Origin: Omnitrophica WOR_2 bacterium RIFOXYA2_FULL_38_17
GTDB taxonomy: Bacteria > Omnitrophota > Gorgyraeia > Zapsychrales > Zapsychraceae
Direction: 5' to 3'
Length of the DNA stretch: 64,000 bases
NCBI GenBank assembly: GCA_001805965.1
Contig: MHHG01000057.1
Coordinates: 13,514 to 77,513 of the forward strand
In this document: one piece after another, positions 16,721-21,970 of the stretch
How positions within the stretch are numbered: the stretch's first letter is position 1
Layout of the letters: each line of letters begins with the position of its first letter
Translations under genes and position numbers: made by a program
Notes under the pieces: generated by a model
Seen by the model: only the letters and a program-made list of their open reading frames with translations
The model's database searches: none
Told to the model about the DNA's origin: nothing

Positions 16721-18793
16721 TTATTGTTTAAACTGTATCCCTTTTTGTGCCGCCTCTTGATTGCCGTACATCCTGTCAAATCCATCTGCCTCAACATCCT
16801 GGCCATATTCATTATTAGGATACGTTTTCACGGGACGATGATCCACGGATCTCGCCTTTTCAACCAGCTCAATAAACTCCTGTCGATAGCCATATGAATC
16901 TTTGCCCTTCGACTCAACAGCTTCATTGATCACGTGGTTGTAATTCGAACTTCCTTTATATTTTGAATCCCTTAGGATCATCCCGAATTCAGCAACTGCT
17001 GCTGCGAACTGAAAATCTCCTCTAGGCTCATTTGCCACTTCACTCTTATTTATTGCCTGCTTGATAAGCTTGCTTACAAAACCATCAGGCTGTTTATAAC
17101 GAAGCTTAACTGTCATCATCTCATCTGATGATACACTTTGTCTTGACTGATACTTCAGTTCATCAACAGAACCAAACTGCTCCGCTGATCCGGCAGGAAC
17201 GATCTCATACAAAGCTGTAACTGTATGGCCAGCTCCTAATTCACCGGCATCCTTTTTGTCGTCATTGAAATCTTCTTTTGCCATGACTCGGTTCTCATAA
17301 CCTATGAGGCGGTATGCCTTTACTTGGGCCGGATTGAACTCGATCTGCAGCTTGACATCTTTTGCTATAGTAAATAAAGTTGAGCCCAATTCCTCAACAA
17401 GAACCTTCTTGGCCTCCTTTATCGTATCTATATAATAGTATGTCCCGTTCCCCTTATTTGCTATCTGCTCAAGACGATTGTCCTTATAATTGCCCATACC
17501 AAAACCAAGTACAGTCACAAAGATACCTTCTTCCCTTTTTTCCTCGATCAACCGGGTCATTTCTGAAGTACTGCTTACCCCTATATTAAAATCCCCATCT
17601 GTGGCAAGAATAACGCGATTGTTACCGCCATCAATGTAATTTTCTTTTGCTATCTTGTATGCTAATTGTATCCCGGCGCCGCCTGCTGTCGAACCTCCGG
17701 CATTAAGGCGGTCAATAGCGCTTAGTATCTCTCTCTTATTAGATCCGGGCGTTGAATCCAGGACTTTTCCGGCAGCACCGGCATAAACTACCATAGCGAC
17801 CCTCTGATCATCTGATAACTGATTGACCATCATCTTCAGGGATTGCTTTAGTAAAGGCAGTTTATTCGGAGTGTCCATAGAACCTGATACATCTATCAAA
17901 AACACCAGGTTACTTTTAGGAATTTCTTCCTGATCCATTATCTTTCCCTGCAAACCAATCCTCACGAGCTGGTGGCTCTTATCCCACGGACAAACAGCCG
18001 CATCGGTATTAATAGAGAAAGGATCCTCTCCTGTAGGCTTTGCATATTCGTAAGAGAAATAATTTAGCATCTCTTCAATACGGACCGCATCCGCAGGGGG
18101 AAGCTGATTACTGTTTAAGAACCTGCGCACATTACTATATGAACCCGTGTCCACATCAATAGAAAATGTAGAAAGAGGATTTTCATTAACTGTTAGAAAT
18201 TGATTCTCATATATGCGGGCATATTCTTCTGTGTTAAATCTTTGAGACTCCTCTCCCATAATAGATTCACCTTCATAAGGATATGATCCTGTCATATTTG
18301 CATCCCTGACAGCACTATAGTTTGTCGATAAATAATAAGGCTCATATTGAACAGCTTGCTGGCTTTTTGATAGCAGCGTTGTATATCCTGGAGAGAATTG
18401 CTCTCCTATATCATCAGCTGCTGATTTAAGCCTTCCCTGGATACCGCGCTTAACATAAACCTGCATACTGCTTAAAGCAATAACACCTATAATGATCGTT
18501 GTCACAATGCCTCCGCCAACGCTCATTCTAAAAATATTCATCTTTTTCACTTTCCTACCCTCCTTTAAATTTGCTTCAAAAAGAGAGACCTGAACTTTAT
18601 GTTCCCAATCAGGCGATACTTCTTCTACCGGATTTTGATTAAGCAGCCGGTCCATTGACCTTAACTGGTTATAATAATCATTAAGCTCTTTATTTTCTTT
18701 GAGCAGCCGCTCAACGAGTTCTCTCTCTTGTAAAGTCACTTCATTGTCCGCATAGCGGGACACTAATTCCTTATTTTTCATTTCTTCGTTCAT
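16721..18793 (-). CDS. anti-sigma factor with extracytoplasmic von Willebrand factor A domain (YfbK-like)
   Basis: N-terminal anti-sigma-like region, one TM, a vWA_N-type region and a VWA MIDAS motif (DVSGSM). Start overlaps the ECF sigma stop (ATGA-type coupling). Confidence 0.7.
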   Translation of the reverse strand: MNEEMKNKELVSRYADNEVTLQERELVERLLKENKELNDYYNQLRSMDRLLNQNPVEEVSPDWEHKVQVSLFEANLKEGRKVKKMNIFRMSVGGGIVTTIIIGVIALSSMQVYVKRGIQGRLKSAADDIGEQFSPGYTTLLSKSQQAVQYEPYYLSTNYSAVRDANMTGSYPYEGESIMGEESQRFNTEEYARIYENQFLTVNENPLSTFSIDVDTGSYSNVRRFLNSNQLPPADAVRIEEMLNYFSYEYAKPTGEDPFSINTDAAVCPWDKSHQLVRIGLQGKIMDQEEIPKSNLVFLIDVSGSMDTPNKLPLLKQSLKMMVNQLSDDQRVAMVVYAGAAGKVLDSTPGSNKREILSAIDRLNAGGSTAGGAGIQLAYKIAKENYIDGGNNRVILATDGDFNIGVSSTSEMTRLIEEKREEGIFVTVLGFGMGNYKDNRLEQIANKGNGTYYYIDTIKEAKKVLVEELGSTLFTIAKDVKLQIEFNPAQVKAYRLIGYENRVMAKEDFNDDKKDAGELGAGHTVTALYEIVPAGSAEQFGSVDELKYQSRQSVSSDEMMTVKLRYKQPDGFVSKLIKQAINKSEVANEPRGDFQFAAAVAEFGMILRDSKYKGSSNYNHVINEAVESKGKDSYGYRQEFIELVEKARSVDHRPVKTYPNNEYGQDVEADGFDRMYGNQEAAQKGIQFKQ

Positions 18794-19368
18794 GATAATT
18801 CCTCCCCGATCAAAGAAGCCAGTTCTTCCCTTAGTCGCTCTTTTGCACGAAAGATAAGCACCTTAACCTTATCCAGAGAACAGTTAAGGATATTACTAAT
18901 CTCAGCGTAGCTGAATCCATGGTACTGCTTCAGGACAATGGCTTCTCTCTGTTCATAGGGAAGTCTCGTTATAGCCTTGCGTACATGATGGGCCCTTTCA
19001 TTTTCCGCAAGTATCTCACGGGAATTTTCTCCCCCGTCAGGAATTTCCCAAGGCTCATATCCGTCATTTCCTTCTGCTGCATACCACAAAGAAACCGTTT
19101 TGTTCCTTTTACGGATACGGTTTATGCATTGATTCCTTGCCACCGTAAAGATCCACGTTGAAAATGTCCTTTTTGAATCATAATAATCTTTATATTTAAC
19201 TACTGCCAGGAACACATCTGAAGCTGCTTCTTCCGCATCTGCCCTGTTACCCAAAAGGCCATAACAGAAGTTGATAATGCGCAGTTTATTACCCTGAAAT
19301 ATGCTTTTCATAGCGTCTTTATCACCATTTTGATAATCCTGCATCAATTGTTCATCACTTCGTTCCAT
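18790..19368 (-). CDS. ECF (sigma-70 family) RNA polymerase sigma factor
   Basis: Region 2 and region 4 motifs (…FTVARNQCINRIRKR…; …LKQYHGFSYAEISNIL…). Start chosen at MERSDEQ (RBS AGGAAT) rather than the longer ORF-track start, because the upstream part overlaps the promoter. Confidence 0.8.
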   Translation of the reverse strand: MERSDEQLMQDYQNGDKDAMKSIFQGNKLRIINFCYGLLGNRADAEEAASDVFLAVVKYKDYYDSKRTFSTWIFTVARNQCINRIRKRNKTVSLWYAAEGNDGYEPWEIPDGGENSREILAENERAHHVRKAITRLPYEQREAIVLKQYHGFSYAEISNILNCSLDKVKVLIFRAKERLREELASLIGEELS

Positions 19369-19392
19369 TGGGTATTCCTGACCTTTCATAGA

Positions 19393-19421
19393 GTTATACG
19401 CGGCAAGATCTGAAATGTTAC
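19393..19421 (-). promoter_or_regulatory. ECF-type promoter TGTAAC-N16-CGTATAAC (copy A, drives the sigma/anti-sigma genes; autoregulatory)
   Basis: Minus strand reads TGTAACATTTCAGATCTTGCCGCGTATAAC. This matches the sigW/sigX-class consensus TG(A/T)AAC-N16-CGTA. It is part of a 48-bp repeat (19384-19432). Confidence 0.6.
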
Positions 19422-20355: not shown

Positions 20356-21093
20356 TTAAATTAAAACTGTGGTCTTATCGTTAAAAGGATTTGTTCTCAT
20401 GGCAAAAAGAAAAAAATACGGATAATGGGTCTTTGTGTATTGCATGTAGCTAAGCCATTGTTTCATCAGACTGTTATAGCCTCGTTCAATATCACCTTTT
20501 GTATGAACTCTATCCACTTCTGATAGTTTTTTAAGGTCTCGCGCGGATAATTCTTCAGTAATATGAAATATTGCCATTAGCGTTTCAGTAAATGTCTCAT
20601 GTTCCAAAAGGGTAGGATTCTGCAATAAATTAGTAAGGAAACCCCTTTTGCTTTTCAAGAAGGCAGCTAGCTTATTTAGATCAACAGATTCAATATCTAT
20701 CTTTGACTTATATTTCTTCATCAATCGAAAAGCAGGCTTAAGATCAAGGTCACAGCTCCCATCATCACATACGATCCTTTTCTTTATCCTATCCAAGTTC
20801 TGATCAAATGCAGATAAATATCCCAACAACTGTTTTCCAAATTCACTAAAGAATACCTCGATTACCATATTCAATTTCCTCAAATTACTTTTCTTTTCCC
20901 ATTCATTTAGGACTTGATTAATAATAATCGATACTAAAAGCACTTCAATAAAGACAAAAGCAATATCTCCAAGAAGATAAATGAATATATGATGTGCATC
21001 TCTAAAAATCAGATAATGTATATAATAAAAAAGCGCAGATAATGCAATCATAACCACAGAAGCATATATTTTCCAATTAGGTTTTTTTCTCAT
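20356..21093 (-). CDS. hypothetical membrane protein (2 N-terminal TM helices plus a soluble domain)
   Basis: No recognisable motifs. ORF only. Confidence 0.35.
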   Translation of the reverse strand: MRKKPNWKIYASVVMIALSALFYYIHYLIFRDAHHIFIYLLGDIAFVFIEVLLVSIIINQVLNEWEKKSNLRKLNMVIEVFFSEFGKQLLGYLSAFDQNLDRIKKRIVCDDGSCDLDLKPAFRLMKKYKSKIDIESVDLNKLAAFLKSKRGFLTNLLQNPTLLEHETFTETLMAIFHITEELSARDLKKLSEVDRVHTKGDIERGYNSLMKQWLSYMQYTKTHYPYFFLFAMRTNPFNDKTTVLI

Positions 21094-21181
21094 CTTTATT
21101 CTCCGTCAATAATATGCTGTTTATGAATAATATTAACATCCCACATCTTCATCCAAATCTTATATTTTAGATAAATATCAC

Positions 21182-21970
21182 CTAATTCTTTACTGTTATT
21201 AGAACAAAAATAATTATGCTCAATAAAAGGCTAAAACCTACATGAAACCATTTTATCTCGAATGCCTTCATTCTCATCTTCACAAAATATTTTTGTCCAT
21301 AATGCACAATACTAACACCTAAGAGCAATGTTATAAGGATCAATATTATAAGATCAGAATAGTACATTAATTTTTCCTTCTGAACAAGTGCAGTATTTGC
21401 CAGGATTATTATCGAATAAATAATGACAGGCCCTAAAATAACCGCACATTTCTTCTTCAAGGAACAACTATCGTCTAACCCAAAATATGGCAGGCAATAA
21501 ACAAACAGTATCAAACTAATATAAAGAAAAACACCACCTGCGAGAAACGTAACATATATTGGTACGCCCAAAGAGTTTATTTTTATAACATCCCCTAAAT
21601 TAAAAATAAACGGGCTGACAAAAAGCATTATTGAATTAACGCCTGTTGAAACAAAGCCGATCAGAATAAAAGGAGTTGCCCACGCGCTTCTAAAAAAACG
21701 CAATATAGATAAAACTATTATTATGCCTATTGCTAATCCAAATATTATTCCGCCGCCTGAAATAAGTATTTTATGAAATGTGATGATCGGGGCTGTTACG
21801 TTATAAAGGACTGATCCACCAGACAAAGGGTTAAAATTTATTTTAGGAAAAGACCCGGTGATAAAATACACGAAGATAGAATGTCCGAATTCATGAAGGA
21901 ACAGGGATATGGAAAAGGCAAACACAGAACTACAAAAGAAAAAAATAACTAGTTTTATAAGTCCAGCCAC
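21182..21970 (-). CDS. polytopic membrane protein with HExxH in TM1 (M50/site-2-protease-like?)
   Basis: LHEFGHSIF sits in the first TM helix, as in S2P/M50 enzymes. No clear LDG motif. Confidence 0.3.
   Translation of the reverse strand: MAGLIKLVIFFFCSSVFAFSISLFLHEFGHSIFVYFITGSFPKINFNPLSGGSVLYNVTAPIITFHKILISGGGIIFGLAIGIIIVLSILRFFRSAWATPFILIGFVSTGVNSIMLFVSPFIFNLGDVIKINSLGVPIYVTFLAGGVFLYISLILFVYCLPYFGLDDSCSLKKKCAVILGPVIIYSIIILANTALVQKEKLMYYSDLIILILITLLLGVSIVHYGQKYFVKMRMKAFEIKWFHVGFSLLLSIIIFVLITVKN

Follow-up and report, generated by a model that had tools for sequence, protein, structure and literature searches.

The stretch analyzed here (the window) comprises 64,000 nucleotides (nt) from Omnitrophica WOR_2 bacterium RIFOXYA2_FULL_38_17 (assembly GCA_001805965.1, contig MHHG01000057.1, positions 13,514 to 77,513 of the forward strand). 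On its minus strand lies the gene of an extracytoplasmic function (ECF) sigma factor, followed by the genes of a single-pass anti-sigma factor with a periplasmic von Willebrand A (VWA) domain and of a lipoprotein, and preceded by a gene for a CPBP intramembrane protease. The sigma gene and the CPBP gene each stand behind one copy of a short repeat, and the two copies are probably promoters through which the sigma factor controls both transcription units (Table 1). The gene content given by the first-pass annotation of this DNA, namely an ECF sigma factor, a VWA protein, a CPBP protein and an open reading frame (ORF) with an HEFGH motif, was confirmed in full.

TABLE 1 Features of the sigma factor locus and its neighborhood, in window coordinates
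Feature	Coordinates	Strand	Remarks
Copy A (P_sig), putative autoregulatory promoter of the sigma operon	19384..19436	-	-35 TGTAAC 19422-19417; -10 CGTATAAC 19400-19393
Copy B (P_cpbp), putative sigma-dependent CPBP promoter	20181..20233	-	-35 TGTAAC 20219-20214; -10 CGTATAAT 20197-20190; A-rich upstream
ECF sigma factor, 192 aa	18790..19368	-	Sigma70_r2 (PF04542) and r4_2 (PF08281); TIGR02937 sigma70-ECF, 97.6 bits versus cutoff of 42.9
Single-pass anti-sigma factor, 690 aa	16721..18793	-	Cytoplasmic anti-sigma domain; transmembrane segment at ~93-115; variable stalk; periplasmic vWF_A, VWA, and YfbK_C
Lipoprotein (lipobox ...MSGC), predicted gluzincin zinc metalloprotease, 268 aa	15838..16644	-	Last operon gene
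CPBP (Rce1-like) glutamic-type intramembrane protease, 240 aa	19418..20140	-	Pfam PF02517, 61.8 bits versus cutoff of 22.4
Strong hairpin without U-tract, between anti-sigma and lipoprotein genes	16662..16701	-	Fold energy, -23 kcal/mol
Intrinsic terminator closing the transcription unit	15634..15681	-	Terminator prediction
M50B-like polytopic HExxH protein, 262 aa	21182..21970	-	HEFGH at residues 26-30, in first predicted helix; neighbor
MJ1433-like membrane protein, 245 aa	20356..21093	-	PF27246 and PF27232; window lineage only, outside the unit

Two copies of a promoter-like repeat

The first-pass annotation had described a 48-nt sequence that occurs twice with one mismatch. The two copies form a 53-nt direct repeat of 94% identity (19384-19436 and 20181-20233), lie 797 nt apart, and contain a core of 44 to 48 nt with a single difference, C versus T, in the -10 extension. 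Counts of the repeat and of its motif for the source genome cover the 64-kb window, in which the core occurs twice, with no occurrence expected from 100 shuffles. On the minus strand the repeat reads TGTAAC-N16-CGTATAA(C/T), as had been proposed, and TGTAAC-N16-CGTA is present in the window at these two sites alone, both on the minus strand, against an expectation of zero. Both copies in the window are at promoter positions, and none was found there in a non-promoter context: the sigma ATG (19368) is 25 nt downstream of copy A, and the CPBP ATG (20140) is about 45 nt downstream of copy B. The two units are tightly packed, with the CPBP stop codon TAA (19420-19418) lying within the -35 TGTAAC of copy A, again as first described.

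The sigma start at 19368 is preferred because the upstream ATG in the related locus L173 reaches a stop after three codons. A leaderless start at the ATG inside the repeat (19389) was rejected on the same evidence and because the locus L170 lacks that ATG.

Conservation of the promoter motif

Orthologous sigma loci (the relatives' loci carry L-numbers here) were gathered by exact-protein look-ups and by scans of sequence collections. A scan of genome contigs with the sigma alignment returned six close loci, and a scan of metagenome contigs with the same alignment had distant sigma factors alone among the matches listed. The resulting set comprises 16 loci with sigma identities of 39 to 88%, mostly named Omnitrophota and including one Planctomycetales metagenome-assembled genome (MAG). 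Genes, domains, motifs, promoter conservation and synteny were observed directly in these loci.

All 16 loci carry TGTAAC-N16 (sometimes N17)-(C/T)G(T/A)(A/T)(A/T)A upstream of the sigma gene, with the -35 element about 40 to 75 nt before the start codon. In an anchored alignment of 19 sites, TGTAAC is invariant and is followed by a T-tract, the remaining spacer is variable, and the -10 element GT(A/T)TAA is conserved. A relaxed form of the motif, run over about 250 kb of related loci and the window, gave 20 matches, of which 19 are in the sense orientation directly upstream of a sigma or CPBP gene; the chance level is about 0.6 matches per shuffled 64 kb. The motif precedes the CPBP gene in four lineages (the window, L007, L173/L174, and L175). 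An AAC-type -35 element combined with a CGT-type -10 element, as expected of an autoregulatory ECF promoter, is thus present in the sequence of 16 of 16 orthologs, and the form xGxAAC-nTTTt...CGTA with a -35-proximal T-tract is an experimentally defined Bacillus ECF promoter class (PMC5758882). Sequence evidence for an autoregulatory ECF promoter could hardly be stronger than it is for the repeat copies, whose reading as ECF-type promoters was the original proposal. With the motif conserved upstream of 16 sigma orthologs and upstream of CPBP in four lineages, the two further claims, that copy A is autoregulatory and that copy B wires the CPBP gene to the same kind of promoter, appear well founded, and the predicted twin-promoter design is conserved.

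The two copies agree at 47 of 48 positions in the window, at 41 in L007, at 40 in L173, and at 27 in L175. Because the copies of the sister lineages share only 27 to 41 positions, the near-identity in the window probably reflects recent homogenization by gene conversion and no functional requirement. The CPBP copy of the window is slightly closer to the sigma copy of L007 than to the CPBP copy of L007.

It is improbable that one or both copies are housekeeping sigma-70 promoters (GTAACA-17-TATAAT/C). Copy B reaches 10 of 12 positions in a sigma-70 scan, and its sole difference from copy A (20190 versus 19393) changes TATAAC, which is kept in most sister-lineage copies, into a perfect TATAAT; this site possibly adds basal expression. 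However, the positions conserved among orthologs are TGTAAC and (C/T)GT, not TTGACA and TATAAT, the more distant orthologs carry GCGTTTAA, which is a poor sigma-70 -10 element, and sigma-70-like matches in the region are not above the shuffled expectation (36 versus 30.3 ± 5.6). Hardly credible is the reading of the repeat as a repetitive extragenic palindrome (REP)-like or mobile-element sequence or a recombination scar: although the direct repeats flank the CPBP gene and their identity runs through the spacer, beyond what a promoter needs, there are just two copies in 64 kb, the spacers of the sister lineages have diverged between preserved -35 and -10 elements, the motif accompanies sigma orthologs in Omnitrophota-named lineages and one Planctomycetales MAG, and neither transposase genes nor inverted ends are present.

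The ATG inside copy B starts an 11-codon mini-ORF (MKIRKLVAIIV*, 20186-20151, minus strand) whose stop codon is immediately upstream of the CPBP Shine-Dalgarno sequence. Similar mini-ORFs are found in L007 (MKDRKLVKL*) and L173 (MKDRKLLKIIE*), with synonymous Leu/Val changes, and none is found in L175. The mini-ORF of copy B is a possible leaderless upstream ORF.

The sigma factor and its anti-sigma factor

With regions sigma2 and sigma4 only, in about 190 residues, the sigma factor falls into the ECF class (group 4). Among curated models, PRK12513 and SigW come closest to it, and neither reaches its cutoff; the scores for the SigW equivalogs TIGR02948 and PRK09641 (110.1 and 118.8 bits versus cutoffs of 243.1 and 209) place it outside that family.

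The sigma stop codon and the anti-sigma start codon overlap (ATGA). Direct matches of the 690-aa product of this +1 gene to NCBIfam anti-sigma models are marginal (E = 0.06), and its Pfam matches are PF00092, PF12450, and PF12034. The N-terminal 80 or so residues retain homology from ortholog to ortholog although the periplasmic parts vary: most have VWA, L172 has alpha-2-macroglobulin, and L010, L012, L014, and L091 have other domains. The overlapping genes and the conservation of the N-terminal domain under swapped C-terminal sensors identify the protein as the cotranscribed cognate anti-sigma factor. The HxxxCxxC zinc motif of class I anti-sigma domains is kept in the homologs of L009 and L011 and is lost in the window clade. 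The stalk that follows the transmembrane segment is hypervariable in length. Within the VWA domain, the residues of the metal-ion-dependent adhesion site (MIDAS) D301, S303, S305, T369, and D399 (D301xS303xS305) are invariant in 10 orthologs, which predicts a functional MIDAS.

In the ECF classification 2.0 (Casas-Pastor et al. 2021, PMC7826278), the hallmark given for group ECF289 is a +1 anti-sigma factor in which VWA is fused to DUF3520 (now YfbK_C). The +1 anti-sigma factor of the window has the same VWA and DUF3520/YfbK_C domains, a likeness that concerns anti-sigma architecture and not sigma phylogeny. The VWA anti-sigma factor, which the first-pass annotation had named as the difference from the sigW set, is therefore an architecture already on record. 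The CPBP gene, the gluzincin lipoprotein, and the twin promoter, in contrast, are not described in the accessible sections of the main text of that paper. No experimental work on a VWA-DUF3520 anti-sigma factor was found in the literature searched.

The locus L172 (2358-8029) pairs an orthologous sigma factor (59% identity), behind a promoter of the same type as in the window, with a 1,699-aa anti-sigma factor. The periplasmic part of this protein is a full alpha-2-macroglobulin (MG2, A2M, TED, and A2M_recep), a protease-trap sensor in place of VWA. Two short motifs are also conserved in the anti-sigma factors. One is a C-terminal G-(I/F/M)-x-(F/Y)-K tail after a variable linker (window 16721-16740), present in 9 of 10 orthologs, and the other is a juxtamembrane motif, KRG(I/V)QGR(L/F)K..DDIGEQ(F/Y)S, at residues ~115 to 140 of the closer orthologs. 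Each is a candidate recognition site for a protease.

The CPBP protease and the conserved gene unit

The CPBP protein belongs to PF02517 both by its score above the gathering threshold and by its intact catalytic motifs EExxxR (residues 125 to 130), FxxxH (155 to 159), and HxxxN (194 to 198), in which E125, E126, R130, H159, H194, and N198 are invariant in four orthologs. The Rce1-like family is its sole Pfam family at an E value of ≤0.01, so that it has no match to the PrsW family (PF13367), and it has no match among PDB sequences. Of the earlier designation as a CPBP/PrsW-like protease, the first half thus stands and the second, by Pfam, does not.

The conserved order of the unit is P-CPBP / P-sigma-antisigma(VWA/YfbK_C)-lipoprotein. 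In L175 the four genes lie amid unrelated genes (MurJ and UvrC upstream and S20 downstream), showing that CPBP, sigma, anti-sigma, and lipoprotein travel as a block. The CPBP stop codon within the TGTAAC of P_sig recurs in L173 and L175, though the CPBP C termini differ, and because the window shares this arrangement with both, the compact junction is probably ancestral. In L007, whose sigma factor is 88% identical, a gene for a 610-aa secreted HEAT-repeat protein (6078-7910) is inserted between CPBP and the sigma promoter; an origin of the window junction by microhomology deletion of that gene was considered and rejected, as L173 and L175 share the stop-in-TGTAAC arrangement. The 3' end of the L007 CPBP gene (6025-6080; AAAAAAACTTCGCAATAA) resembles a decayed copy of the A-tract and -35 element.

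Linkage among the genes is nested. Sigma and anti-sigma occur together in every lineage, the lipoprotein gene is added in a clade of at least 59 to 60% sigma identity, the CPBP gene is present in a subset of that clade, and a gene for an M50B-like protein (the HEFGH protein, below) accompanies them in two close lineages.

A lipoprotein with a predicted gluzincin fold

The third gene of the sigma operon had been overlooked in the first-pass annotation, yet it is linked to the sigma/anti-sigma pair more tightly than either the CPBP or the M50B-like gene. It begins 76 nt past the anti-sigma gene, ahead of the only clear terminator. The encoded lipoprotein has no Pfam family match. Residues H121, E122, H125, and E141 are invariant in its alignment, and its AlphaFold2 model has a predicted local distance difference test (pLDDT) score of 90.8. 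The top 50 Foldseek matches of this model in the PDB are M1, M9, M30, and related zinc peptidases (best E value, 1.8e-4), led by the catalytic domains of M1 aminopeptidases, M9 collagenase, and M30 lugdulysin. HExxH with a downstream glutamate on a modeled thermolysin-like fold points to a gluzincin of clan MA(E).

The close family of the lipoprotein is small, with 20 clusters in 5.8 billion proteins, and six of the eight genomic contexts read for it adjoin a VWA anti-sigma gene. The gene stands directly downstream of the VWA anti-sigma gene in six lineages (the window, L007, L173/L174, L175, L170, and L177). A distant homolog (L179) lies among lipopolysaccharide (LPS)-core genes with no adjacent sigma gene, and a truncated copy (L178) likewise stands apart from any sigma gene. 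Conversely, L171, L009, L011, L089, and L090 have a VWA anti-sigma factor without a lipoprotein gene nearby.

The hairpin between the anti-sigma and lipoprotein genes has counterparts at the matching position in L007, L173, and L175, with a similar stem sequence in L173 and different ones in L007 and L175. A partial terminator or an RNA stabilizer is its probable role, and the hairpin may govern how much lipoprotein is made relative to anti-sigma factor. Hairpin arms of the GGGACAGG type recur upstream of the CPBP promoter of L007.

A conserved noncoding block of about 95 nt lies between the lipoprotein stop codon and the terminator hairpin in the window (15694-15786, minus strand), in L007 (~11569-11665), and in L173 (~7636-7735), with the pattern ATGAATC..TTGG...ACCAATTAATATAGAT..TTAAA...TCCGATT. 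The genes downstream of it differ in the three genomes, and the block therefore travels with the cassette. It has no Rfam match, as is true of the whole of window positions 15000 to 23000, and the consensus fold from the three sequences is weak; the block is a candidate 3' untranslated region element or small RNA.

The HEFGH protein and other neighboring genes

The HEFGH protein had been described as M50/site-2 protease (S2P)-like with the motif in its first transmembrane helix and had been counted as a component of the cassette. The first statement is upheld at the level of the superfamily. The window protein itself has no Pfam or NCBIfam match, and a word-indexed search found one close relative, whereas a full HMMER scan found 68. 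In an alignment of 54 sequences (the window protein and 53 relatives), H26, E27, H30, G74, D127, and G135 are invariant; 42 of the 54 match Peptidase_M50B (PF13398) and 17 match Peptidase_M50 (PF02163). Against solved structures, the family profile matched the S2P MJ0392 (3b4r) with an E value of 5.6e-6 and SpoIVFB with an E value of 0.007. HExxH in a transmembrane helix together with M50/M50B homology marks the protein as a divergent, M50B-like member of the M50 superfamily. Besides the HExxH helix that it shares with Peptidase_M50B, the invariant D127, in a GD context, is a candidate for the Asp zinc ligand of an LDG-type second motif; the single-sequence AlphaFold2 model has a pLDDT of 57, too poor for zinc-ligand geometry. 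At 262 aa, the protein is all helical and polytopic with no PDZ match, unlike the S2Ps of the RseP/RasP type.

The second statement does not hold. The HEFGH gene has no promoter motif and sits after a terminator shared with L007. It is found in the window and in L173/L174/L169, two genes upstream of CPBP in the former and directly upstream of it in L173/L174, and it is absent from the L007, L175, L170, L177, and L171 loci. Because it lacks the promoter motif and is absent from most cassettes, the M50B-like gene is probably outside the unit. No RseP-like ORF was seen in the 64-kb window by motif inspection.

The MJ1433-like gene is absent from L173, L007, and L175. Farther upstream, a gene for a periplasmic LTXXQ-like (CpxP/Spy-type) protein (22117-22668, minus strand), followed by a terminator, contains three 30-nt tandem repeats (22501-22590) that encode the Met/His-rich decapeptides ..MSKMMHEGKG MSNMMHRAEG MPKMMMDESN.., whose composition suggests metal binding. 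Its synteny with the genes of a response regulator and an FKBP protein holds for the window, L007, and L173 and does not extend to L175.

Comparison with characterized systems

The locus resembles the sigmaW-RsiW system of Bacillus subtilis in having an autoregulated ECF sigma factor with a single-pass anti-sigma factor and in its promoter elements, namely an xGxAAC -35 element, a -35-proximal T-tract, an N16 spacer, and a CGTA -10 element (PMC5758882). A polytopic protease is associated with both systems (PMC10202637). The differences are nonetheless considerable. The window sigma factor is no SigW equivalog (110 to 119 bits versus cutoffs of 209 to 243), its anti-sigma factor carries a large VWA sensor, its protease is Rce1-like and not PrsW by Pfam, the protease gene neighbors the sigma gene and stands behind a copy of the putative sigma-dependent promoter, and the cassette has no PDZ-containing S2P of the RasP/RseP type. 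With rpoE-rseA-rseB-rseC of Escherichia coli, the locus shares the gene order of sigma factor, anti-sigma factor, and periplasmic partner at position +2, together with a sigma-dependent autoregulatory promoter. In the window, however, the +2 product is a lipoprotein with an intact zinc-protease site and not an RseB-like lipid/LPS binder, and the sensor domain is unrelated.

The ECF sigma factor, its autoregulatory promoter of the AAC/CGT class, and the VWA-DUF3520 anti-sigma factor are thus already known elements. Literature searches on CPBP/CAAX proteins with anti-sigma factors, on DUF3520, and on Omnitrophica sigma factors returned nothing relevant beyond the classification paper and reviews, and we found no description of a conserved twin promoter, of a CPBP gene controlled by it, or of a gluzincin lipoprotein within the operon, features that move together here as a four-gene unit in Omnitrophota.

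A model for the module

We consider it probable that the locus is a compact, positively autoregulated ECF module whose own sigma factor recognizes both 48-nt copies as promoters. Its promoter consensus would be an A-rich upstream segment, TGTAAC, a T-tract, a total spacer of N16, and (C/T)GT(A/T)TAA. P_sig would drive the sigma factor, the anti-sigma factor, and the lipoprotein zinc protease, and P_cpbp would drive the CPBP protease, which is catalytically intact by its motifs. Because no terminator lies between the CPBP gene and P_sig, transcripts started at P_cpbp probably continue into the sigma operon as well. In the resting state, the anti-sigma factor would hold the sigma factor at the membrane by its N-terminal domain, with the periplasmic VWA/YfbK_C domain and its invariant MIDAS as the putative sensor. 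A signal would then lead to inactivation of the anti-sigma factor, most likely by proteolysis, by analogy with other single-pass anti-sigma factors (PMC10202637), and the freed sigma factor would raise its own operon and CPBP jointly. The two coinduced proteases, which are the only recognizable output in the loci read, would probably act on a periplasmic or membrane target detected by VWA or on the anti-sigma factor itself.

Several points weigh against this reading. The CPBP promoter copy of L007 has GGT in place of CGT in its -10 element, and copy B of the window also fits a weak sigma-70 pattern (GTAACA-17-TATAAT). Of about 12 distinct lineages, 4 have the CPBP gene beside the sigma/anti-sigma pair and 6 have the lipoprotein gene there; the core pair thus requires neither, unless the genomes without them at this place encode them at another. 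Membership of the regulon was judged from 64 kb of this genome, and further members are possible. Finally, we infer from sequence the start sites, which sigma factor reads the promoters, what the signal is, and every proteolytic step.

In a bolder form of the model, for which we hold out limited expectation, the four genes would make up a portable ECF module that both encodes and induces the proteases that trigger it, with the VWA/MIDAS anti-sigma factor cut by the lipoprotein gluzincin, by CPBP, or by both. If true, this would be, with both proteases under the sigma factor's own promoters, a self-amplifying, switch-like circuit of regulated intramembrane proteolysis (RIP) independent of PrsW, DegS, and signal peptidase, and it would place the first Rce1-type CPBP protein in sigma factor signaling.

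It is doubtful that the lipoprotein gluzincin is the signaling partner, with CPBP as a mere output gene. Encoded at position +2, as RseB is behind RseA, the lipoprotein would act on VWA by cleavage or binding, as a site-1 protease or modulator, and a housekeeping S2P encoded elsewhere would finish the cleavage. Its place in the operon directly after the anti-sigma gene in six lineages, a linkage tighter than that of CPBP, the tiny close family found mostly beside VWA anti-sigma genes, and an extracytoplasmic location shared with the VWA domain are all consistent with such a role. The five loci with a VWA anti-sigma factor and no lipoprotein gene nearby speak against it, as do the homolog among LPS-core genes and the truncated copy, neither of which adjoins a sigma gene.

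An assignment of the locus as a dedicated RIP cassette, in which CPBP makes the site-1 cut, as PrsW does on RsiW, and the M50B-like protein makes the site-2 cut, as RasP/RseP does, is unlikely. PrsW belongs to the same broad protease superfamily as CPBP. The scheme of sigmaW, RsiW, PrsW, and RasP, with which the first-pass annotation had drawn a parallel, is well established (PMC10202637). In favor of the assignment are also the apparent wiring of CPBP, with its intact motifs, to the sigma promoter in four lineages and the nearby HEFGH protein, a remote M50 relative. Against it, CPBP has no PrsW match in Pfam, and most loci with a VWA anti-sigma factor have no CPBP gene close to the sigma gene; the M50B-like gene follows a terminator, has neither promoter motif nor PDZ domain in its product, and is missing from L007, L175, L170, and L177. 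Moreover, a site-1 protease under the control of the sigma factor that it frees would give unchecked positive feedback. Most of the probability left by this and the preceding alternative goes to both proteases being output genes only, apart from small shares for the sigma-70 and non-promoter readings of the repeat; with output genes only, the autoregulated module would be one more ordinary ECF regulon.

Significance

Pairs of ECF sigma and anti-sigma factors are the third major mode of bacterial signaling. To our knowledge, the mechanism by which most anti-sigma factors are inactivated is not known, and we know of no cultured model organism for the phylum Omnitrophota. The cassette described here is a real, ordinary to moderately interesting variation on a well-known type of switch; it is not expected to surprise the specialist, and it offers a useful minimal system for reconstitution. 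It gives two orphan protein families a candidate role. The unit also poses defined questions: what the VWA anti-sigma factor senses, whether CPBP or the lipoprotein zincin releases the sigma factor, and why there are two promoter copies. As a minimal, portable unit of small parts, the locus is suited to rebuilding in E. coli or B. subtilis.

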